IMG/VR virus record: IMGVR_UViG_3300006329_000017
Coordinates: 1-59,021 of that record
Origin: a virus
Taxonomy: Duplodnaviria; Caudoviricetes
Strand: one strand, 5' to 3'
DNA: 59,021 nt
The position numbers were made by a program, and so were the translations under genes. Shown here piece by piece: positions 2,639-50,207 of this stretch. Numbering within the stretch: position 1 is the first letter of the stretch; each line of letters opens with the position of its first letter. The notes under the pieces were generated by a model, which was not told the origin of the DNA, made no database searches, and was given only the letters and a program-made list of their open reading frames with translations.

Positions 2639-4967
2639 TACATGCCTCACATTCTGATTCATCACCAGATAATATTTCATTCACGAGATTATTTAGATAC
2701 ATACCCTCGTTGTCCTCATGTGGTTGTTCATCCTTCCATCCGATTGGATGTGCAGGTTCATCAACATCCTTCTTAGCATCATATGTATTCTGATAGTAAG
2801 AAGTTTTCCATCCTAATTTATAGGTAGTCAAGAAGTCTCTTGCCATCACATCCATAGGAACTTCATTGTCAGGATAGTTCTCTGGATTGTATGACCAGTT
2901 ACCACTTATTGCTTGATCAAAGAACTTCTGCATCACTGCTACGACATTGATGTAACCCTCGTTAGATGGCATATCCCATAGTAATGTGTAGTTATTCTTT
3001 AGTGATTGATAAGACGGAACAATCTGCTTAAGCGGTCCTTTCTTTGATTTTTTAATGGACAAGTAGTCTCTAGGTGGTTCGATTCCATTGGTTGCATTTG
3101 ACACAACGGAACTGCTCTCCGAAGGCATCTGTGCGGACAATGTGCTGTGCCTGAGACCGTGGGTGGTGATAGATGTCCTAAGACTATCCCAATCATGCTT
3201 GAGGTTATGAGGTACTATAGAATCTACATCTCTCTTATATGTATCGATAGGTAGTATTCCATCAGCATATTTTGTGTCATCAAATCCTGCACATCTTCCT
3301 CTCTCCTGAGCAAGTTGGTTAGATGCTTTCAGTAGATAGTATTGGAATGATTCTGTTAGGTCATGAACCAACTGCCATGCAGCAGGGTCATCATACTTGA
3401 CACCATTCTTAGCAAGATAATGTGCTAAACCAATGTATCCTATACCCAATGACCTGCGTGCTATTGTGCTGCGTTCTGCTGCCTTTACAGGATAGTTTTG
3501 ATAGTCTATTAGTTCTTCTAGTCCACGAACAGCAAGGTCACAGAGTTCATCCATCTGATCTGTGTTTGTTATCTTACCTACGTTGATAGCAGATAGAATA
3601 CAGAGTGCAATCTCTCCTCCTTCATCATCTATATGATTGATAGGGTCAGTAGGTAGAGTAATCTCTTGACATAGGTTACTCATGTTAACTTTATCCTTAA
3701 AGGATGAGTGCTCATTACAATGATCGATATTCATAATGTATATACGACCTGTCTCTGCCCTCTCCTTGAGGATGTCAAGCATTAATTCTTTTGCTTTAAC
3801 TGTAATTCTGGGGATGGATTCGTCCCTTTCGTAACTGCAATATAGGTCATCAAACCTATCGGTCCCAAAACTCTCATACAAGTTAGGACAATTATGGGGA
3901 GAAAAAAGCGAGATTTCCTGATTCCTGATAAACCTTTCATAGAATAACTTACTGATCTGAATACTATAATCTAACTTTCTGACTCTGTTGTCTTCTGTTC
4001 CTTTGTTGTTCTTGAGGACGATGATGTCTTGGATTTCCTGATGCCAGATAGGAAAGTGGACAGTAGCTGATCCTCCTCGGACACCGTTTTGCGTACAGCA
4101 TCTGACAGTTGACTCAAATTTTTTAAGGAAGGGGACCACACCTGTGTGCTGAACTTCTCCACCCCTGATTTTAGAATTGATTCCCCTGATTCTACCTGCG
4201 TTAATACCGATACCAGCCCTCTGTGCGACATATTTGCCAATAGCCATATCACTGCTAAAGATACTATCGAGGGTGTCATCAATATCAACCAGAACACAAG
4301 ATGCAAATTGACGAATGGGTGTTCTGACTCCAGCCATGACGGGGGTTGGGATGTTGATTCTGTGCTTGCTGATTGCGTTGTAGTACCGTTTGACATAATC
4401 GATTCTTGATTCGATGGGATAATTTTGGAAGAGAGTAGCAGCAATTAACATGTACATCTGCTGTGGTGTCTCAAACACCTCACCAGTACTGCGATCTTGT
4501 ACTAGATATTTATCTACGACCTGTCGTAGACCTGCATATGTGAACAGATAATCTCTGTCCCAATCAATAAAGTCATGAAGTTCTGACCATTCCTCTTCCG
4601 AATACTGTTTGATAAGGTCAGGATCATACACACCCTTGTCAATACACTCCTTAATATGCTCTATAAGAGGTGGAGGATTGTCTGGATGTCCTTTATATAC
4701 AGATTTTCTATAAGAAAATAGAAGTAAACGAGCAGCAACGTACTGATAGTTAGGTTGCTCTAATGTAATCAAATCATTTGCAGATTTGATAAGGATCTCT
4801 TGTATGTCAGATGTCATTATATTCTCATAGAATTGCAAATTAGAGTTCATCTCTATTGCTGATTCAGATACACCTGCGAGTCCATCACATGCGAACTCCA
4901 CCATGCGGTGAAGTTTGTCGAGGTTAAGGGGTTCGACTACACCGTTACGCTTTACTACGCTGATCAT
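2631..4967 (-). CDS. nrdA: Ribonucleotide reductase class Ia alpha subunit
   Basis: N-terminal ATP cone (VVKRNG), QFASCVL, SNLCQEI, MPSESSS, C-terminal CEAC. Confidence 0.98.
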   Translation of the reverse strand: MISVVKRNGVVEPLNLDKLHRMVEFACDGLAGVSESAIEMNSNLQFYENIMTSDIQEILIKSANDLITLEQPNYQYVAARLLLFSYRKSVYKGHPDNPPPLIEHIKECIDKGVYDPDLIKQYSEEEWSELHDFIDWDRDYLFTYAGLRQVVDKYLVQDRSTGEVFETPQQMYMLIAATLFQNYPIESRIDYVKRYYNAISKHRINIPTPVMAGVRTPIRQFASCVLVDIDDTLDSIFSSDMAIGKYVAQRAGIGINAGRIRGINSKIRGGEVQHTGVVPFLKKFESTVRCCTQNGVRGGSATVHFPIWHQEIQDIIVLKNNKGTEDNRVRKLDYSIQISKLFYERFIRNQEISLFSPHNCPNLYESFGTDRFDDLYCSYERDESIPRITVKAKELMLDILKERAETGRIYIMNIDHCNEHSSFKDKVNMSNLCQEITLPTDPINHIDDEGGEIALCILSAINVGKITNTDQMDELCDLAVRGLEELIDYQNYPVKAAERSTIARRSLGIGYIGLAHYLAKNGVKYDDPAAWQLVHDLTESFQYYLLKASNQLAQERGRCAGFDDTKYADGILPIDTYKRDVDSIVPHNLKHDWDSLRTSITTHGLRHSTLSAQMPSESSSVVSNATNGIEPPRDYLSIKKSKKGPLKQIVPSYQSLKNNYTLLWDMPSNEGYINVVAVMQKFFDQAISGNWSYNPENYPDNEVPMDVMARDFLTTYKLGWKTSYYQNTYDAKKDVDEPAHPIGWKDEQPHEDNEGMYLNNLVNEILSGDESECEACNV

Positions 4968-5950
4968 ACTCGTTTCCAGTCTGTGAATTTTAATTTTGCT
5001 TCCAATCCATTATATGTGTTGGATAATATTATAGCAGAAGGGTCAAGTCCTGCCAACACCATATCATTGATGTCTTTCTGTTCGACATTCTTTGGCCAGA
5101 TCACTATATTATCCTGCTTGCTAATGGATTTTTCCATTCGCTCAATGATCTGTTTGTTTCTTGGTTCGTTGTCATATACATAGACAAACTCATAATCCCA
5201 AGCACTAAGGTCAACATCGGCACCGCACATAGCGATAGCATTGTCCACAAAGAGGGAGTCCAAGGGTCCTTCTGTAACATAAACTTTTTCATTTTGGTTG
5301 ATAGTATCAAGTCCAAAGACCTTTTGATGATCATCGAACATTATTGTAATGTATCGTAACGTTGTATGCTTTGCCAAAGATCTACCCTGAATGCCAAACC
5401 ATGTACCATCTGCACGAACGAGTGGGATAATAATTCTGGGTTGATCATTGTGGAGACTATCAAACGTTTTCTTCTGTGTGTTGACCCAAGTCTTAAACTT
5501 CTCAGCATAGAATAGTCTTGAGAGTTGACTCTCTGGAACCTTCCTATCGAGAAGATATTTCTTTGCAGGGTGTTCTTTATTTAGATCAGAAATACATTTG
5601 AGATCGTGTGGTTTTTTAAACTTTGGTGTACTGTCAGGGATAGTAAATTTCTCTACCGTTGTACCCTTACCAGTAGAGTTCATACGATACTTTTCTAACT
5701 GATATTCACTATACAAATCAGGAGCAAAGTCTTTCAGAAAGTTCGCAGTAGTCTTCCCAACACCACAGTTGTGGCATTTGTATACCATACGTCCTTTGAC
5801 CAGAAAAAAATACCCCCGAGCCTTGTTCTTATTCTTCTTGGAATCTCCACAGAAGGGGCAACGGAAGTTGTATAGTGAGTTCTTAACTCGTTTAAATTTT
5901 TCTAATCGAATGGATAACCTATTAATATAGAGGTCATCAACTGTACTCAT
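4964..5950 (-). CDS. gp61: DNA primase
   Basis: Zn ribbon CPFCGD...CHNC; TOPRIM motifs EGPLD and YDNEPRN; KDINDM. Confidence 0.95.
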   Translation of the reverse strand: MSTVDDLYINRLSIRLEKFKRVKNSLYNFRCPFCGDSKKNKNKARGYFFLVKGRMVYKCHNCGVGKTTANFLKDFAPDLYSEYQLEKYRMNSTGKGTTVEKFTIPDSTPKFKKPHDLKCISDLNKEHPAKKYLLDRKVPESQLSRLFYAEKFKTWVNTQKKTFDSLHNDQPRIIIPLVRADGTWFGIQGRSLAKHTTLRYITIMFDDHQKVFGLDTINQNEKVYVTEGPLDSLFVDNAIAMCGADVDLSAWDYEFVYVYDNEPRNKQIIERMEKSISKQDNIVIWPKNVEQKDINDMVLAGLDPSAIILSNTYNGLEAKLKFTDWKRV

Positions 5951-6341
5951 TAATTGTGCTAGTGGGTATTGATATCATAGTACTTTCTGCTCCACTTGTC
6001 AAGAGTGGACGGATTATTCTCTGTCCGACTGGACTAACGAGGAAAGATAGAAGAGAAAGAGCACCAAAGATACTCCACATTTTCTTTTCCATCGTCCTAA
6101 GACGGTCATCGACTTTACGGATGTCTCTTTCACAACCACGTTTGATTGAGTCTGTTTCTCTGTTGAGGTCTGCATGTAACCTATCTACCTTCTCGAATAA
6201 TACCTGATCTATCTTATCTTGCTTATCTAACTTCTCATTATGAACTGCCAGTAGTTGACCCATCTTCACGGAGTTATCCTGTAATGATGATACTACTTTT
6301 TCTAATCTTTCTAGTATAGCTGTGTTTATATTCTGGTCCAT
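5937..6341 (-). CDS. Coiled-coil protein with a C-terminal transmembrane helix
   Basis: Heptad-rich N-terminus; MWSIFGALSLLSFLVSP hydrophobic segment. Confidence 0.75.
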   Translation of the reverse strand: MDQNINTAILERLEKVVSSLQDNSVKMGQLLAVHNEKLDKQDKIDQVLFEKVDRLHADLNRETDSIKRGCERDIRKVDDRLRTMEKKMWSIFGALSLLSFLVSPVGQRIIRPLLTSGAESTMISIPTSTINEYS

Positions 6342-6342
6342 C

Positions 6343-6756
6343 CTACTGGTTCTTTAACGCTTTCATCCTTAGGTCGTAGTAAAATTTGATCACCTGATTG
6401 GGATACAAACGTTTCACATATATCTTTTTATGATTCTCAGGTCTGTAGATCTTCCTGAGTTGTATCTTAATGTCTGCTTCGGACTTACCATAGAGTACAT
6501 ACTCTTGTGCACCGTCATAACATACTTTAAAAGGCAGGTACCTGTCATTCTCCTTCTCAGATTTAGGAGTGACGTGTCCTACCACAAGTCCTTCATTACA
6601 CTTACTCTTATACTTACGCTTCTTCCTCAGTCTAGGTTTCTTTTCGCTGTTCGAACCTAGCATTGGATCAAAACCTGCCACAGGACCACTAGCATTGGCA
6701 GATCCAGAGAATCCACCAGTACCTGCACTCATTGTTGGGGCATCTTCGTTAATCAC
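6343..6756 (-). CDS. Hypothetical protein with a gp23 N-arm-like N-terminus
   Basis: GTG start overlapping the upstream stop; residues 2-33 match gp23 residues 50-81. Confidence 0.8.
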   Translation of the reverse strand: MINEDAPTMSAGTGGFSGSANASGPVAGFDPMLGSNSEKKPRLRKKRKYKSKCNEGLVVGHVTPKSEKENDRYLPFKVCYDGAQEYVLYGKSEADIKIQLRKIYRPENHKKIYVKRLYPNQVIKFYYDLRMKALKNQ

Positions 6757-7127
6757 AATTTCCTTAGTGTGTCGTAGATAGTTTCATCAAGTGGTACATC
6801 TTCTAGTACTCCTTCATTACCATCTTCGGGATACCTGCTGAGGTATATCAAAAATGTTTTGACAGAGGAGTAGTATTCCCTCTCAAGTTTGTACATTAAT
6901 AAAGGTAGGGTACCTTCACCAAATACATTAAACAAAACTATTAAGTGATTCAGAATCAGTGTGGTACGCAGTACTCCTGTCTTTAGATAACGCTTAAGCA
7001 ACCTCTTAAGGTACTTAAACTTTTTCATATCTTCCAGAAAGTCATCCACAGTCACAGACTGTGGATTCTCGTAGTACTTGATTGCGAACATCAAATGATT
7101 CTTCTCATCTAGATGATCAAATCGCAT
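6753..7127 (-). CDS. Conserved T4-like hypothetical protein
   Basis: FAIKYYENP...DMKKFKYLKRLL...LILNHLIVLFNVFG, a recurrent marine T4-like family; late promoter CTAAATA at 7150-7156. Confidence 0.8.
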   Translation of the reverse strand: MRFDHLDEKNHLMFAIKYYENPQSVTVDDFLEDMKKFKYLKRLLKRYLKTGVLRTTLILNHLIVLFNVFGEGTLPLLMYKLEREYYSSVKTFLIYLSRYPEDGNEGVLEDVPLDETIYDTLRKL

Positions 7128-7152: not shown

Positions 7153-7977
7153 TTAGCTACCGAAGGTTAGAGTAGCAGCTCCGTTGGTGTACTTCTGTTC
7201 AGCACCTTTACTTGTGTTAAGAACACAACGATACTTGTAACCGTTAAGTGTAGTACCACCGAGACTACTGTATGCAAGTGTTGCAGTAGTGAAGTCAGCG
7301 TATGTGATACCAGTGTCAAGGTTAGCAGTGATGTCCACCCAACGTGTAGTAGCTGTAGCTGTCTGTCTTTGCCACTTGTACTGCTTTGTACCAGACTGAT
7401 CGACTGTGAAGGCAGCAACGAATGTTCCTGCACCAGAAGATGAGGTGGAGTTAGCAGGTTGTGTACCAACTGTGATAGTTTCTAGTACATCTGCTGCGAT
7501 TGTATCGTCATCAAGATCACCAGAAGTTCCAACTGCAACTTTAAGAGGTACGATGCACTCAGCTTTATGCTTGGTGTCACCATTGTGTGTTTGGTATGTA
7601 CGATACTGCCACCATCCTGGACCTGAGATACCACGAGTCTTGTTAGATGCGATGCTATCTTCAGTTGTATCTACAAATACCAATTCGTAGGAGTTAGAGT
7701 CTCCTCCAAGTATAACGTACTCAGCCACTGCCTTTGGCGGTGTCCTTTTGATTACACTAGCAGCAGCAACAGTTGCTGTACTACCTGCATATACTTTATG
7801 CAATTCGATAGATGTTGTACTTGTTACTTGCTTAACGATATAAGCAACGCTACTAATCTCTAGCACGTCGCCTACTACTACGCTATCTCCCGCATTCTTA
7901 GACACAGTAGCATCACCATTGGTGACTCCAATTGTGTTAGAGAATGCAGCTGCGTCAATTTTTCCTACGACAGACAT
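7153..7977 (-). CDS. Virion structural protein with C-terminal Ig-like domain (possible head decoration)
   Basis: Thr/Ser/Ala-rich; Ig signature QP...YKWQ...YRCV...ATLT; TATAAATA at 8014-8021. Confidence 0.7.
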   Translation of the reverse strand: MSVVGKIDAAAFSNTIGVTNGDATVSKNAGDSVVVGDVLEISSVAYIVKQVTSTTSIELHKVYAGSTATVAAASVIKRTPPKAVAEYVILGGDSNSYELVFVDTTEDSIASNKTRGISGPGWWQYRTYQTHNGDTKHKAECIVPLKVAVGTSGDLDDDTIAADVLETITVGTQPANSTSSSGAGTFVAAFTVDQSGTKQYKWQRQTATATTRWVDITANLDTGITYADFTTATLAYSSLGGTTLNGYKYRCVLNTSKGAEQKYTNGAATLTFGS

Positions 7978-8013: not shown

Positions 8014-8021
8014 TATTTATA
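8014..8021 (-). promoter_or_regulatory. T4 late promoter TATAAATA
   Basis: Exact consensus ~36 nt upstream of the 7977 start. Confidence 0.8.
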
Positions 8022-8422: not shown

Positions 8423-8676
8423 TTCTTATCTGCTGTAAATTTACGGTTCTTCATGTAACCCCACTTGCCTTTGTGTAATGCTCTTACACCTTTGGGGTTC
8501 CTGATAGCATTCTTCTGTTTCTCTTTGGCATCAGCATCCTTAGCCATAAATTCCTTGTACCTTTTCTTACCGTACTTGGATTTATACTTGGTTTCTTTTG
8601 CCTTTACTTTTTCTTGTTCGTAGGATTTAAGCCTATCGGCAGCAGCATCGTTATCCCACTCTAGGATTGCTGTCAC
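8419..8676 (-). CDS. Lysine-rich hypothetical protein, 85 aa
   Basis: GTGA overlap; N-terminal ILE as a possible gp21 cleavage site. Confidence 0.65.
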   Translation of the reverse strand: MTAILEWDNDAAADRLKSYEQEKVKAKETKYKSKYGKKRYKEFMAKDADAKEKQKNAIRNPKGVRALHKGKWGYMKNRKFTADKK

Positions 8677-9173
8677 CTTCTTGCCTCTTTCTTTTTCTTA
8701 TCATACTCAGCAGTTGCTGCAAGCATCTTCTTCTTAAGATTATCCTTTGCTTTGCTAGTCTTACTGTGAGCAGTAGCACCTACAGATGCAGGTAGAGCAG
8801 CACCTGTTACTGCAACCTCTTTGATTGGTTCGATTTCTATATCAACTCTAGCATCATATCCATCAGGGACACGAGACTTTGCTAGTGCGAGTGATTCTTT
8901 CTGTAACTTATCTCTTCTCTTGATGACTGCACCTCGTACCTTTCTTCTATACTTAAGATACTTGTCATCTTTTTGGTTCTTTTTACCGTCGTTGTTGATG
9001 TCAGAATCTTCTTTACCGACGGGATCTAATTTTTCTTGCATAAGATCCTCCTTCTTTGGATTAATCATGATACCTTTTTTGACTTTGGTCCCGCCTTTCA
9101 TAATAGCAGGTTGATGGTCCTTGTCACGACGATCATTCTTATTTAATAGTGTTTGTTGTGCTCTGGAACTCAT
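8673..9173 (-). CDS. Basic putative internal head protein
   Basis: LDPVGKEDSDINNDG (DxDxNxDG loop); MQE/IKE possible cleavage sites. Confidence 0.65.
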   Translation of the reverse strand: MSSRAQQTLLNKNDRRDKDHQPAIMKGGTKVKKGIMINPKKEDLMQEKLDPVGKEDSDINNDGKKNQKDDKYLKYRRKVRGAVIKRRDKLQKESLALAKSRVPDGYDARVDIEIEPIKEVAVTGAALPASVGATAHSKTSKAKDNLKKKMLAATAEYDKKKKEARR

Positions 9174-10660
9174 GAGTTTACCTCCATTGCTTTACGCCAA
9201 TCATAACTTTCTCCCATACGTCTTGCAACATTACGGGAACCACGAGAAACACTACGGGCAATCTTACCAACGACTTTCTTGATACCAGCTTTTAAACCAC
9301 CACCTGAGGAACCAGATGATGAACTACTAGAACTAGATGGTTTGGAACCTCCACTACGACCTGAACCTGAGACATAACTGTTACCAGTTACACTAGATTT
9401 TCCGTCTGTACTAGAACTAGATGATGTAGAAACACTGGACTTCACTTTTTTCTTAGCAGACGCACGAGCATCTTTATATCCAGACTTAAAGTCTGATCCA
9501 GCTTTCTTAGCAGCACTACCCACCTTACTAGCAACGTTAACTGCTGTACCTGCAGCTTTACCTGCTTGATATGGTACTTTCTTTAACCCCTTCTTAACAG
9601 CTGAACCTGCACTCTTAAGTGCTGACTTCACTTTTTCTGCACGAGAAGGACCAGAGTTGTCTTTGCTAGGTTGCTTGTCTTGTAATGTCTTACGAGCAAT
9701 GGCACCTGCATCTCTTGGTTTTTCTTTCTTTGGTGCTTGTACTGCAACATTAGGGAATGCTGAATGCTTTGATGGTGCTTCTGTTAACAACTCTATGCCA
9801 TCTATAGCTTCGAGTGCTTCATTAAGTGAACCTTCATCCAACTCTTCTAATGCTTCTACAAATAATGTTTCGAGTTCTTCGAAACTAATCTCATCGATGT
9901 AATCATCATCTAGGTCGATGTATCTTTCGATAAGATCATCGATAGTCTCTTCACCAAGCCTTTTCTTTTTCTGAGCAGAGTATAAACGAGAAGACTGTGC
10001 TAGTTTCTTCTTAGCCTTCTCTTTATCACCTGCTACTGCTGCCTTACCTCTTTCCACTTCAGCCTTCTTGGATGCTTTTAGTGCGAGGTCAGCAGAGATT
10101 TCTGTAATAGTGTCCTCTTTGACATGATCTGCTTTTTTATAGACGGGTTCCCCCTTCTTGTTCTTCATGCCTTTCTTAAAGTTCTGCCATGCAGGAGTGT
10201 TACCTTTCTTATCAGCGTTAGTAACTGTCATAGCTTCCAACATAGATCTATGCAAGTCATCTATATCAATAGACTCCTTAGGACCTTGTACACCTATGTC
10301 TTCTGCATACTTAGCAGTCTTCTCTCCTTTCTTACCTACTACAATGTAACGACCATCAGATTTACGACCAGTGATAACCATTGATTGTCCACCAGGTGAG
10401 ATAACTCTACCGATGTTACGATCATCAGGTGAGATACGCTTGTTCTTATCGATCAATTCTTTCTCGATAGGAAATCCACCATACCCTTCGAAAGTATCTT
10501 GGATAGGTGACTCATCGATGATCTTAATGATCTTATCAACTGTCTCCTGCATACGTTGGGAGGGAGCTTGTGACTCTCTGTCAACATGTTTTAGGATTGT
10601 CATCTGTTCATCAAGGGTATAACCCATGAGTTCTGCAGACACTTTTATGTCAGTTGTCAT
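9170..10660 (-). CDS. Large low-complexity putative internal head (poly)protein
   Basis: Alternating acidic and Lys/Ser-rich blocks; several hydrophobic-x-E sites (MLE, ITE, LGE, LNE, LTE, MGE); late promoter at 10685-10691. Confidence 0.7.
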   Translation of the reverse strand: MTTDIKVSAELMGYTLDEQMTILKHVDRESQAPSQRMQETVDKIIKIIDESPIQDTFEGYGGFPIEKELIDKNKRISPDDRNIGRVISPGGQSMVITGRKSDGRYIVVGKKGEKTAKYAEDIGVQGPKESIDIDDLHRSMLEAMTVTNADKKGNTPAWQNFKKGMKNKKGEPVYKKADHVKEDTITEISADLALKASKKAEVERGKAAVAGDKEKAKKKLAQSSRLYSAQKKKRLGEETIDDLIERYIDLDDDYIDEISFEELETLFVEALEELDEGSLNEALEAIDGIELLTEAPSKHSAFPNVAVQAPKKEKPRDAGAIARKTLQDKQPSKDNSGPSRAEKVKSALKSAGSAVKKGLKKVPYQAGKAAGTAVNVASKVGSAAKKAGSDFKSGYKDARASAKKKVKSSVSTSSSSSTDGKSSVTGNSYVSGSGRSGGSKPSSSSSSSSGSSGGGLKAGIKKVVGKIARSVSRGSRNVARRMGESYDWRKAMEVNS

Positions 10661-46214: not shown

Positions 46215-46235
46215 TAAAATATTTATATCCTTTGT

Positions 46236-46815: not shown

Positions 46816-48162
46816 TTACATTAAGTTGTCAACAAGAACACGTCTGTAGTAGCGGTTCTTATTAGGATCAAGATCTCCACCGCCTTGGTCTGTGCCTTCC
46901 GCAAATGGGTTAGCAACCATACCGTAACGAGTCTTAAAGCCAATTTTAGGTTGGAATGTATCCTGACCTACGGCTCTGACCATTTGTAGAGGTACATATG
47001 GACAATAGAACAGACCTGCGTCGTATGCTGAACTACCTTTGTATCCTGCAACGTAGAAGTGTCTGTCACTTACGTTTGCTGAATAAGGGTCAACGTACAC
47101 TTTGATGCGTCCGTTTAATGTTCCTGCAAGTGTGGAACTATTGTCATCTGGAAGTAAGTTTGAGTTTCCAGCTAAAGCAGGTGTGTAATCAAGTACACCA
47201 GCCATTGATAGAGCAGAAGCTACGTCTGCAGAACATATTAGAATGTTCCCTTTTCCACGACGAGTTTCATGCCCGATTGCGTTCATGTCTCTTTCGATCT
47301 GGAATAGAAGACCTTTAAACTTCTCAACTGACCATCTACCGTTGGAGTCAACGTCTAGGTCAAATATTCCTGCAGTTGCTGTGTTGTTCTGAGCACCAGG
47401 TCTTGCAACCTTGTATACAGATCTTACAACTTCACGGTTGATTTCAGCAAGAACCTCTGTTGAGAGGATGTTTGCCAATTCTGACTCAGCGTCTAAGCCG
47501 TGAACTGCCTTAAGGTCTTGTGCTAGTTCTAAACTGTACTCAGCTTTGAGTGCTCTGGACTTAGCAGTCACAGTAACTTTCTCAATACTGAAGTTCATTT
47601 CAGCGAACTGGTTACCACTAGCATCACCTAATGCTTCAGCTTCTGCTGTAGGCATTCCGTCTGATGTGTTGTAAGTTCCAGATGCGTTTAGAAGTCCTGG
47701 GTTAGATCCAGACTGTGCTGTTCTACCTAGGTCACTAGCAGCGTTCTCTGCTGAGAACTCTGTGTCTGCTTCGTTAAAGAATGCTTCGGATCCAGCTGTA
47801 CGGTTAGTACCATAGCGTGATCTCATCGCAAAGATAAGACCTGTTGGACCTGTCATTGGTTGTACCCCTGCAATGTCATAAGCAATAAGCTTAGGCATTG
47901 ATCTCCTGATTAGGGAGATTAAAACTGGGTCGAAACCTGCTACAGGACCTGTAGCTGTAGAACTACCACTGAAACCTGCAGTACCAGCAGACATTGTAGG
48001 AGCAGCTTCGTTAAGAACGCCAGCTTCTTCCTTTAAAAATCTTTCTTGGTTTTCTAGCAGGACTGAGGTAACTGCCTTTCTATAACCATCTTTGATATTG
48101 TCTATCTCAGAGTGCTCTAGAATGGGTTTCCACTTTTCCTGCAATGATTCTGAATTAAACAT
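46816..48162 (-). CDS. gp23: Major capsid protein
   Basis: LLENQ, GVQPMTGPTGLIFAMR, KSRALKAEYSLELAQDLKAVHG, FQPKIGFKTRYG. Confidence 0.99.
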   Translation of the reverse strand: MFNSESLQEKWKPILEHSEIDNIKDGYRKAVTSVLLENQERFLKEEAGVLNEAAPTMSAGTAGFSGSSTATGPVAGFDPVLISLIRRSMPKLIAYDIAGVQPMTGPTGLIFAMRSRYGTNRTAGSEAFFNEADTEFSAENAASDLGRTAQSGSNPGLLNASGTYNTSDGMPTAEAEALGDASGNQFAEMNFSIEKVTVTAKSRALKAEYSLELAQDLKAVHGLDAESELANILSTEVLAEINREVVRSVYKVARPGAQNNTATAGIFDLDVDSNGRWSVEKFKGLLFQIERDMNAIGHETRRGKGNILICSADVASALSMAGVLDYTPALAGNSNLLPDDNSSTLAGTLNGRIKVYVDPYSANVSDRHFYVAGYKGSSAYDAGLFYCPYVPLQMVRAVGQDTFQPKIGFKTRYGMVANPFAEGTDQGGGDLDPNKNRYYRRVLVDNLM

Positions 48163-48204: not shown

Positions 48205-49242
48205 TCACCTTGCCCAACGGCTTAGTGCACTAGCGTATGCAGACATTGCATCACCAGTTACTTCGCCACCCTCAATTGCAACGTCATCGGATTTCTCCTC
48301 AGCAGGTGCAGGTTTGGTTGAGAAATAAGACTCTTTAAGAGTATTTACTTTCTCACGGAAGGCTTCTTCATTGTCAAACTCAACAGCTTCAGCAAGAGAG
48401 TGTAGTTTCTCCTTCTGTGTGAGGGAGAGACCCTCGCTCAGCTCATTCACAATCCCATTCTTGATATAGCTGCCGACCTCTTTTGAGAGATCAACATTCT
48501 CTTCGATTTGTTGGTTGAGTTTTTGCTCCATAGTATCGAGTTGCTTAGTCATTTCATCAACTAAGTCAACTTTTTCGTCGGGAAGATCAATATGATTCTC
48601 GACAAAAACTTGTTTGAGACCAGCCATGACAGACTCTGCCATTTCGGTTTTGATTCCGTGCTCAATTGCGAGTTCGTTATCCTTAATCCAAGAATCCACA
48701 TGGTATTTAAGGGTCTCGTCAACCTTTTCTGCAAGCTCGGACTTCATAGTCTCGACTTCTTCTTCTAGGACTTTTGCATAATCAGTATGCATACGCTCTA
48801 GTTCTTCGTTTATACGGGAAACAACTGCTGCTTCGAAGATAGTCTTTGCTTTCTCTTTAAACTCTTCTGATAGGTCTTCACCTTCAGTAAGAGCAGCAAC
48901 GTCAGCAGAGAGATCGATCTCGATAGTTTCAGTTTCCGCAGGTGTTTCAGCAATAACCTCACCTTCAGGTTCTAGACCTGCTTTTACGTCTCCTTTTGTA
49001 CTAAACTCTGCCTTCTGGCCAGAAGCAGCAGATGGTTTTGTTTGAGGAGGTGTAGCAGTAGGACCGCCACCAGTCTTGTACTTATTGGAATCGTCAGTAG
49101 GTTTAGAATTAAATGGTGTAGGACCACCTAAATCTTGAGGACCACCTTGTCCAGGAGTTCCACCTTCACTTTTAGGTTGTGGATCACCAGGTTTGGCGTT
49201 CTTGGTCACTGCATTTTCATCAATAGTTTGTTCATTAGACAT
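48205..49242 (-). CDS. gp22: Prohead core scaffold
   Basis: EEFKEKAKTIFEAAV, LKESYF; TATAAATA at 49285-49292. Confidence 0.93.
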   Translation of the reverse strand: MSNEQTIDENAVTKNAKPGDPQPKSEGGTPGQGGPQDLGGPTPFNSKPTDDSNKYKTGGGPTATPPQTKPSAASGQKAEFSTKGDVKAGLEPEGEVIAETPAETETIEIDLSADVAALTEGEDLSEEFKEKAKTIFEAAVVSRINEELERMHTDYAKVLEEEVETMKSELAEKVDETLKYHVDSWIKDNELAIEHGIKTEMAESVMAGLKQVFVENHIDLPDEKVDLVDEMTKQLDTMEQKLNQQIEENVDLSKEVGSYIKNGIVNELSEGLSLTQKEKLHSLAEAVEFDNEEAFREKVNTLKESYFSTKPAPAEEKSDDVAIEGGEVTGDAMSAYASALSRWAR

Positions 49243-49294
49243 TGTTGTCTCCCTCTGCGTACAATTTTGGTTATTTGCTATAGTTATTTATAAC

Positions 49295-49939
49295 TTATAG
49301 ACTTTTTAAGAATGTATCGAATGCGGAAATCTTTCTTTCCGAGATTTGAGATGCGGCTGCGTTGTTAATTCTGTCCTTAATTGTCTCCAATTTCTGTTCA
49401 GATACACCACTTCCAGTCCAAATCCATTCTTTACCTTCTAAAATACCTTCCACAAATGCGTCAGGTGCTGATGGGTCTGCTACTATATCAGCAGCAGTAG
49501 CTAGTGTGAAGTCATCACACACTACCTTACATCCATTTTGTTCTCTAATAGAACCTAGTCCTCGTGAAGAAACACCAAGTTTGATGCCTTCATCAAGAAG
49601 TTCTTTAGTTACACGTCCCATAGGAGTATCAAGTATGCGTGCTTTGCCCACATAGTTGTTACCTTCTTGTCTAAGAGATGTGATTAAATGTGATACACGA
49701 TCTAAGTTTATGGTAGGTCCTTCTGGATGACCGAGTTCTCCCATTGCACGACCCTTTTTAATATAACCTTCGTTATATTTTTGTACTTCTCTATTAAGAG
49801 TTTCCATTGGATACATGCGTCCGTTACGGTTTTTGATAGCACCCTGTAGAAATACACCTTCGATAAAGGTCTTGCGTTTGCTTCCCTTACCTTCGGTTAT
49901 AACCTTGGTATCATTTATCGTTTCCGTTATCAGTTTCAT
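49295..49939 (-). CDS. gp21: Prohead protease
   Basis: MKLITE, NRNGRMY, GELGHP, GVSSRGLGS, DPSAPDAFV. Confidence 0.96.
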   Translation of the reverse strand: MKLITETINDTKVITEGKGSKRKTFIEGVFLQGAIKNRNGRMYPMETLNREVQKYNEGYIKKGRAMGELGHPEGPTINLDRVSHLITSLRQEGNNYVGKARILDTPMGRVTKELLDEGIKLGVSSRGLGSIREQNGCKVVCDDFTLATAADIVADPSAPDAFVEGILEGKEWIWTGSGVSEQKLETIKDRINNAAASQISERKISAFDTFLKSL

Positions 49940-50207
49940 CTGGGGTTTCCTCAGTTTCTGGTTCATCAGTTGGTTCGACAGAACTTGGAGTTCCATCTGC
50001 TTCCGCATCAACTTCTGCTTTTGGCTCTGTTTCTCCCTCTTCTGGTTTCTCTGGAGTAGGTGTAAACATTTGCTTACCCACTTCTTGTTTCATGGAGTCA
50101 ATAGAGTCCATGGCCAGTTCCTTCATACGGGAATCAACGTAATCACTAAGATCTTTTCCACCACCGAATACGGTGTTAACAATATCAATTGAGCTTTGAG
50201 AAGGCAT
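49911..50207 (-). CDS. Prohead core protein (gp67-like)
   Basis: Small acidic ORF between g20 and g21; late promoter at 50227-50233. Confidence 0.7.
   Translation of the reverse strand: MPSQSSIDIVNTVFGGGKDLSDYVDSRMKELAMDSIDSMKQEVGKQMFTPTPEKPEEGETEPKAEVDAEADGTPSSVEPTDEPETEETPDETDNGNDK

Follow-up and report, generated by a model that had tools for sequence, protein, structure and literature searches.

Why would a tailed phage keep a second copy of the cleavage site and N-terminal segment of its own major capsid protein, carried on a small protein encoded far from the capsid gene? The question is raised by IMG/VR virus record IMGVR_UViG_3300006329_000017, a stretch of 59,021 nucleotides that was analysed whole and is referred to here as the window. 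It is a T4-like cyanomyovirus, and its nearest named record is cyanophage P-RSM6 (99% identity for the major capsid protein gp23 and 90.5% for the small protein). The small gene (6343..6756, minus strand) encodes 137 residues of the Syn9 gp190 / T4-GC_426 / phrog_696 family, T4-GC_426 being the gene cluster of Sullivan et al. 2010, and the phrog_696 profile covers residues 2-136 (E 8e-49). We propose, at odds of roughly one in two, that its product is a minor or internal head protein, targeted to the prohead and trimmed by the protease gp21, that would dock by self-mimicry of the gp23 N-terminus. In more general terms, the gp23-like copy is probably used by the small protein to enter or dock on the phage head.

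The original prediction, made from the sequence of this locus, described a near-copy of the gp23 segment at the maturation site, and the alignments bear this out. Residues 2-33 of the small protein (6753-6658) match gp23 residues 50-81 (48015-47920) at 25 of 32 positions, 41 kb away, and BLASTP extends the match to residues 1-35 against gp23 residues 49-83, with 26/35 identical (pairwise E 3e-15). The capsid gene itself lies at 46816..48162 on the minus strand (Pfam Gp23, PF07068, E 6e-145), and its residues 49-83 (47914..48018, minus strand) hold the maturation site V-L-N-E/A and the copied N-terminal segment; cut site and N-terminal register relative to T4 were set by aligning the conserved GP..G..RR / GVQPM block. 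The motif GPxAGxDP occurs twice in the six-frame translation of the window, only in the small gene and in gp23. At the DNA level, 76 of 117 aligned columns are invariant between the two genes, and the same codon is used at only 10 of the 22 shared residues other than Met and Trp, in line with the many synonymous differences that had been noted.

The small gene begins with a GTG that overlaps the stop codon of the upstream gene as GTGA. This start is supported because an AAGGA Shine-Dalgarno sequence lies 4 nt 5' of it, because of the overlap, because N3 and E4 are invariant among 62 aligned homologues (62 of the 121 listed sequences, long forms left out; a second alignment held 25 of the 121), and because by eye no Shine-Dalgarno-like purine run occurs in the 12 nt preceding the internal ATG at codon 9. 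The P-RSM6 RefSeq record NC_020855.1 places the start of its homologue at this internal ATG instead.

Read from the GTG, the protein has four parts, all on the minus strand. Residues 1-4, M-I-N-E (6745..6756), make up a minimal leader of the Leu/Ile-x-Glu kind, ending hydrophobic-x-Glu and in register with the V-L-N-E maturation site of gp23. Residues 5-35 (6652..6744) align to gp23 as a copy of its mature N-terminus, the equivalent of the T4 N-fist. They are followed by a basic linker, residues 36-68 (6553..6651; 12 K/R, isoelectric point 10.4), at which relatives carry insertions of up to ~110 residues, and by a small alpha/beta domain, residues 69-137 (6346..6552), with the order strand-strand-helix-helix-strand-helix. 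The expectation of a basic stretch followed by a small unrelated domain thus holds, with KKPRLRKKRKYK at residues 39-50, after the copy, and similarity to gp23 confined to residues 1-35. In the AlphaFold2 (AF2) model, residues 1-70 are disordered at a per-residue confidence (pLDDT) of ~50, the gp23-like copy alone included, and residues 74-135 form a confident domain of ~65 residues (pLDDT ~90). A Foldseek search of the PDB with the modelled domain returned nothing at E<=0.001 (best E 0.38), and VIA-align wide gave no clear relative, its best Z of 5.1 being tied among ribosomal, RNA polymerase epsilon and AcrIC9-like small alpha/beta domains.

Records of this protein in RefSeq, in PHROGs (phrog_696) and in one GenBank entry carry the label 'major head protein' or 'precursor of major head protein', and 'major capsid domain-containing protein' is a further label among them. 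We reject an identity of this kind: Pfam finds no family at E<=0.01 in the window protein and so no Gp23 domain, similarity to gp23 covers only residues 1-35, and AF2 gives only the ~65-residue alpha/beta domain. The label appears to have been propagated from the 35-residue match.

How widely is this arrangement kept? With the small protein as query, tblastn reached 294 phage records, all cyanophages except one marine virus, and a protein-collection search gave 273 matches at E<=1e-3. Among close relatives (the 62 aligned homologues) the N-terminal segment is nearly invariant. The family layout reads as a leader of 0-11 residues, often ending hydrophobic-x-Glu, then the copy of the gp23 N-terminus, a basic linker and variable C-terminal domains. 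The constant part of the family is the gp23-like arm with its basic stretch, not the C-terminal domain. Thus Syn9-type proteins have an extra Gln/Lys-rich tail, S-ShM2-type proteins add one further domain, and P-HM1, P-HM2 and S-PM2 encode at the same locus an arm and basic stretch joined to a different C-terminal part (phrog_4187). P-SSM2_205 has an arm-like motif and a Lys run near its C-terminal end. Pfam finds nothing in T4 gp61.1, Syn9 gp190 or S-PM2p147.

The C-terminal domain used alone as query gave 30 representatives at E<=1e-3, and it is C-terminal in all of them. Eight of these relatives were fetched. In six (294-558 residues) the arm is internal and follows directly after V-A-E, P-E-E, K-E-E or H-E-E; in the other two, P0245 and P0271, it stands at the start, directly behind M-N-E or M-F-N-E. 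The long metagenomic forms (P0252, P0255, P0257, P0261, P0267 and P0269, 294-558 residues) have large basic pro-regions before the arm, some with DUF6321 and glycine-zipper stretches, and several of them start MPA(K/V)SK.QQ(K/R)(F/Y)FGYLLSNPDERKK.

The position of the arm relative to the cut was compared in 28 genomes, namely the window and 27 fetched phage records (one per named phage among the matches listed, plus six by accession). A Glu-ending motif (INE, VNE, MNE-E, MKEE, NLNE or PEE) precedes the arm in 15 of them, and in the remaining 13 the arm starts the protein with no x-x-Glu motif. Nine of these 13 begin M-T-[V/I/M]-[M/A]-T-A-G. Methionine aminopeptidase removes an initiator Met that precedes Thr, and with this Met gone the M-T-starting members would stand in exact register with the T-L-Q-T-x-G of mature gp23. 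With or without a Glu motif, then, the small protein appears to present the N-terminus of mature gp23.

These observations bear on an explanation in which the small protein is a regulator of maturation or a protease decoy, competing with gp23 for gp21 or for the site of the N-terminus, timing cleavage or expansion, and then being degraded or lost. The copy does begin exactly at the cleavage site, T4 gp61.1 copies positions P9-P1 of the gp23 site too, and the homologue went undetected in S-SZBM1 virions. However, the 13 of 28 cyanophage members that have no cleavage-type motif argue against an obligatory protease-substrate or decoy role. Further, a competitor needs neither a conserved folded C-terminal domain nor a basic linker, and the proteomic flag on T4-GC_426 in the accessible part of PMC3037559 speaks against it. 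We consider a regulator or decoy unlikely.

Does the copy follow the gp23 of its own phage? This was the expectation of the original prediction, and it stood for part of the family: own gp23 ranks first or second in 12 of the 28 genomes but eighth or worse in 11. Own-pair scores add up to 2263, where permutations average 1877 (standard deviation 66) and 0 of 20000 come as high, although the permutation treats related phages as independent and the significance is thereby overstated. The arm copied in P-HM1 and P-HM2 is a gp23 type confined to their lineage (11 consecutive identical residues), and the two phages differ from each other by the same Pro/Gln difference in both genes and at a second coincident position. 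The copies of Syn9, S-MbCM6 and P-SSM4 are of the short 'TTGYTG' type, as are their own gp23 arms, S-SSM4 and ACG-2014d have a one-residue deletion common to both genes, and the gp23 arm of S-RIM8 resembles its own small protein in features otherwise typical of small proteins. Counting against tracking are 10 genomes that pair a 'GY' gp23 arm with a 'GF' copy. Of the 13 genomes with a GY gp23, 3 have a short 'GY' copy, against 0 of the 15 others, a weak association (Fisher ~0.09), and the gp23-core tree, with 14 of 25 inner branches open, is too poorly resolved for counting independent events. The copy seems to track its own gp23 partly, in lineages such as P-HM1/P-HM2, Syn9 and S-RIM8.

A match of this kind could be a recombination accident, that is, recent or repeated transfer of DNA between gp23 and a neighbouring open reading frame (ORF), with no function of its own. 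Gene conversion between similar sequences is possible, and identical DNA runs of 11 and 16 nt between the two loci in P-HM2 and S-RIM8 may be short conversion patches. Against this, the same codon is used at shared residues in 164/426 comparisons between own pairs (38.5%) and in 3648/9615 between non-own pairs (37.9%). Recent gene conversion as the source of the match is rejected by this test. Since own and non-own pairs are equal, synonymous sites between the two loci are saturated; for comparison, codon identity at shared residues is 55.5% among gp23 orthologues and 49.2% among small-protein orthologues. The design is also kept in 294 cyanophage and 1432 T4-like records, and we find an accident scarcely credible. 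The gp23-like copy is maintained by protein-level selection, as had been proposed when the match was described as something other than a fresh DNA duplication.

The same design is present in T4 itself. Gene 61.1, whose product of 54 residues is labelled 'hypothetical', lies directly upstream of the primase gene 61, and its product has one other match in the T4 genome, gp23 residues 58-95 (45% identity, E 1.4e-5). By our own count 17/37 residues are identical, over a span that includes the cut site and the N-fist; the copy starts before the cut, running from gp23 residue 57 to 93 and taking in P9-P1 of the site. The window protein and T4 gp61.1 alike have a segment resembling their own gp23 from the maturation site on, and then a basic tail. 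The 61.1 family extends over 1432 phage records (phrog_1823, with longer relatives in phrog_2086). Ten of 12 T4-like pairs were read (L147 and L171 were left out, and record G007 has no gp23). In all ten, hydrophobic-x-Glu precedes D-M-V-A-G-D. The 61.1 copies of the divergent T4-like phages L170 and L173 show features of their own gp23, and the own-versus-other test over the ten pairs is marginal (991 of 20000 permutations as high).

The first ten residues of T4 gp61.1, MKTFKEFIKE, resemble a capsid-targeting sequence (CTS). A degenerate pattern for this type of start finds exactly three T4 genes, 61.1, ipII and ipIII, and the products of the latter two begin MKTYQEFIAE. In the available text of PMC9026906, targeting depends on CTS residues 4 and 7 and processing on residues 8 and 10, and gp61.1 keeps all four of these positions. 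The CTS of the internal proteins IPII and IPIII and the gp61.1 leader also resemble the P10-P1 decapeptide of gp23, with an aromatic residue, Phe, Ile/Leu and Glu at positions 4, 7, 8 and 10; in T4 gp23 residues 56-65 the matching places are taken by Phe, Phe, Leu and Glu. It is tempting to speculate from this likeness that the T4 targeting tag may itself imitate the capsid protein.

Is the cyanophage locus the same gene as 61.1? P-SSM2_205 and the marine protein P0261 begin (M/V)KTFKQF.E, which links the cyanophage locus to the T4 leader, and a leader of the IPII/IPIII type is thus found on gp61.1 and on two marine relatives. A direct profile link from the window protein to phrog_1823 or phrog_2086 gave no match at E<=1e-3. 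Across the two clades, copy and own gp23 score 135 and 80, and copy against the other clade's copy scores 28. This is no better than gp23 arm against arm (31), so common descent with T4 gp61.1 may be argued only from position, design and the MKTFKQF-type leader, not from alignment. In our literature search no paper was found on the function of gp61.1 or Syn9 gp190.

The surroundings of 61.1 could hint at another use for a capsid mimic. Pfam assigns its upstream neighbour in T4, 61.2 (record L137, 1664-2290, minus strand), to AdfA, anti-DarT factor A (E 1e-135); 61.2 has no relation to DUF7207, the upstream neighbour in cyanophages. An anti-defence decoy would imitate a gp23 peptide sensed by host immunity and block or mislead the sensor, and adjacency to an AdfA gene, the highly variable C-terminal parts, and a weak and non-significant fold similarity to the anti-CRISPR AcrIC9 (Foldseek E 0.98, Z 4.0) could be taken in its favour. 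Yet the design is kept from coliphages to Prochlorococcus phages at one genomic position, which argues for a core morphogenetic role, and the CTS leader speaks for a destination in the head. Likewise counting against it, the copied stretch stops just short of what we take to be the equivalent of the T4 Gol peptide. We judge such a decoy distinctly improbable.

What, then, could a copied gp23 N-terminus do? The available text of three papers (PMC9546572, PMC7136217, PMC9958956) describes the T4 N-fist as gp23 residues 66-91, which lie inside the unexpanded prohead near the scaffold core, move to the outer surface on expansion and help to form the Soc sites. According to the accessible part of PMC9958956, the N-fist touches four subunits, two in the same capsomer and two in the adjoining one, and that of PMC7136217 reports it as disordered in the five subunits facing the portal, which lack an adjoining capsomer. 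The original prediction also considered an anchor to the inner shell. In T4, expansion leaves the equivalent of the copied segment on the outside of the capsid rather than on its inner face.

We propose a model in which small proteins bound for the head, each with a copy of the gp23 N-terminal segment at its core, would form a family that extends across the T4 superfamily, with 61.1 as the T4 member. The protease gp21 would remove the short hydrophobic-x-Glu leader, here M-I-N-E, and the cut would expose an N-terminus that imitates mature gp23 (in T4, N-fist 66-91). Since the small protein resembles the gp23 N-terminus, it could use the sites that hold that segment, which in T4 lies by the scaffold core inside the prohead and at capsomer contacts after expansion. 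The basic linker and C-terminal domain would thus be carried into the head or tethered to it. Cleavage, binding site, copy number and the role of the C-terminal part are features that we infer. The candidates for these steps are encoded next to gp23 in the window: the prohead protease gp21, presumed processing enzyme (49295..50011, minus strand; Pfam Peptidase_S77, E 4e-32), and the scaffold protein gp22, possible prohead partner of the copied segment (48205..49242, minus strand; Pfam T4_CASP, E 1e-76). Within this model we lean slightly towards an internal protein that is DNA-associated or injected, with a shell-bound filler of N-fist sites close behind and other roles taking the smallest share. 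A complex prediction with two copies of gp23 residues 84-448 and small-protein residues 1-45 scored 0.00 (mark 0.32) and gives no evidence either way.

A more specific structural claim, which overlaps with our proposal, is that the processed protein is a spare N-fist. It would occupy sites in the gp23 lattice that receive no incoming N-fist, such as those on the five hexamers surrounding the portal, and so complete and stabilise the shell at the vertex where symmetry is broken. The bridging of capsomers by the T4 N-fist and its disorder in the portal-facing subunits suit this idea, and the N-terminus of the copy is in register with mature gp23 in nearly all members. T4 IPII and IPIII enter heads by the CTS alone, with no gp23-like segment, and the gp61.1 copy must therefore serve something beyond entry. 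However, the solved T4 head entries contain no separate gp61.1 chain, it is hard to see what a highly basic linker would do on the outside of the capsid, large variable C-terminal additions (proteins of up to 558 residues) suit a cargo better than a lattice plug, and several phages have eroded copies. On balance we think a spare N-fist rather doubtful. The boldest form of the idea is that all T4-type phages encode a spare gp23 clasp, delivered to the prohead and trimmed by the protease, which completes the lattice at the portal vertex and co-evolves with gp23, the CTS itself imitating the gp23 decapeptide; we offer it as a tentative conjecture that is considerably more likely wrong than right.

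Evidence from virions bears on the proposal of a gp21-trimmed head protein in both directions. For T4-GC_426, the entry under 'Existence of Proteomic Data?' is YES in File S1 of PMC3037559, a paper whose accessible part gives the S-SM1 virion as the proteome analysed, and GenBank notes on family members read 'similar to Synechococcus phage S-SM1 protein'. Several observations weigh against the proposal. In the same File S1 the entries for S-SM1 stand one row off around T4-GC 424-426, and SSM1_197 is GC 425 there and GC 426 per GenBank. The 30 proteins of the S-SZBM1 virion proteome do not include the homologue SSZBM1_134 but do include its neighbours _136 and _139. The N-terminal tryptic peptide of the mature small protein would be 35 residues long, and it may escape detection or be credited to gp23. 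The absence of a gp61.1 chain from the solved T4 head entries counts here too, as do the 13 motif-less genomes and the 11 in which own gp23 ranks low. In S-SZBM1, S-WAM1 and S-CREM1 erosion of the copy sets in after ~10 residues, and in S-PM2 it affects nearly the whole copy. The window small protein lacks the 10-residue CTS-type leader with its aromatic residues at positions 4 and 7, and no CTS-like start occurs among all ORF starts of the window. Finally, the late-promoter-like motif TATAAATA is absent within 3.1 kb around T4 61.1, and late expression in T4 is not indicated.

The gene neighbourhood of the small gene is shared widely. In the 27 fetched records the order is gp188-like structural protein, gp189-like DUF7207 protein, small gene, gp191-like DUF7201 protein, primase and nrdA, with extra genes in P-HM1/2 and P-SSM2. 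In the window, too, the small gene lies between the DUF7207 and DUF7201 genes and upstream of the primase. All are on the minus strand: the Syn9 gp188-like 'head protein' (phrog_613) at 7153..7977, with homologues annotated as virion structural proteins; the Syn9 gp189-like DUF7207 protein, the constant upstream neighbour, at 6753..7127; the Syn9 gp191-like protein (DUF7201), a coiled-coil protein that ends in a hydrophobic stretch and is the constant neighbour on the downstream side, at 5937..6341; and the DNA primase gp61, identified by annotation of homologous loci and the anchor of the position common with T4 gene 61.1, at 4964..5950. Pfam and synteny identify the two constant neighbours. 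The predicted setting among head-associated genes is supported. Annotations of the gp188-like homologues vary between virion structural, S-layer domain and cell adhesion protein, and the DUF7201 neighbour is annotated 'holin-like' in S-CREM1. The gp188-like protein is possibly a capsid decoration protein that heads the same late-promoter-like unit.

A T4-type late-promoter-like motif, TATAAATA, lies at 8014..8021 (minus strand), 36 nt 5' of the cluster's first gene, whose ATG is at 7977. The window holds 5 matches against 4.1 expected, and the reading of this one as a late promoter is suggestive by its position only. More copies of TATAAATA, at 46220-46227 and 49285-49292 (minus strand), lie directly 5' of a small ORF downstream of gp23 and of gp22, and are consistent with T4-type late promoters. 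The supplement of PMC7238727 gives ortholog groups but no expression class for the cluster genes. Upstream of the cluster are two low-complexity Lys/Ser/Asp-rich proteins, at 9170-10660 and 8673-9173 (both minus strand; phrog_27523 and phrog_24377); the former also matches a cytidyltransferase-labelled family, only via its repetitive part.

Beyond the single locus, a conserved natural protein whose only constant part copies the gp23 N-terminal segment, and which in T4 is joined to a classical targeting leader, offers a handle on what holds the gp23 N-terminus in the prohead, on the N-fist sites at the portal and on the loading of cargo into heads. Protein sorting into the T4 prohead core is still called 'mysterious' in the accessible part of a 2023 review (PMC9958956). 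The analysis also corrects a widespread 'major head protein' mis-annotation in cyanophage genomes, and the arm may be of use as a short tag by which proteins could be loaded into the heads of cyanophages or T4.

Four known systems allow comparison. Like T4 gp24, the small protein is the product of a second gene derived from or resembling gp23 that would act in the head; unlike gp24, which is a whole-fold paralogue of gp23, it copies only ~30 residues. Cyanomyoviruses lack g24, as stated in the available text of PMC2984593. In the window, no gp24 gene adjoins or follows gp23. The T4 N-fist is the positional equivalent of the copied segment, both running from the cut site to just before the ...ISLIRR / ...GMVRR block, whereas the cyanophage copy is free-standing on another protein and unrelated in detailed sequence (score 31). 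A sequence search of the PDB found no structure of a cyanomyovirus head.

The T4 internal proteins IPII and IPIII and the capsid-targeting sequence were reportedly the subject of work by Mullaney and Black in 1996. They too are small and basic, and gp21 cleaves off their N-terminal leader, which ends I-x-E, according to the accessible parts of PMC9958956 and PMC9026906, and their leader has 7 of 10 residues and all four determinant positions in common with that of T4 gp61.1. Unlike the window protein they have no gp23-like segment after the cut, and the window protein in turn lacks the 10-residue leader; packaging and injection have been shown for the internal proteins, whereas the window family is known here from sequence. 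The closest comparison is with T4 gp61.1. That protein has a full 10-residue leader of the internal-protein type, no folded C-terminal domain and a gene directly upstream of gene 61, whereas the window protein has a 4-residue leader, a 69-residue C-terminal domain and a gene two genes upstream of the primase. In both, a gene on the primase side of the genome encodes a copy of the cut site and N-fist of its own phage's gp23, followed by a Lys-rich tail.

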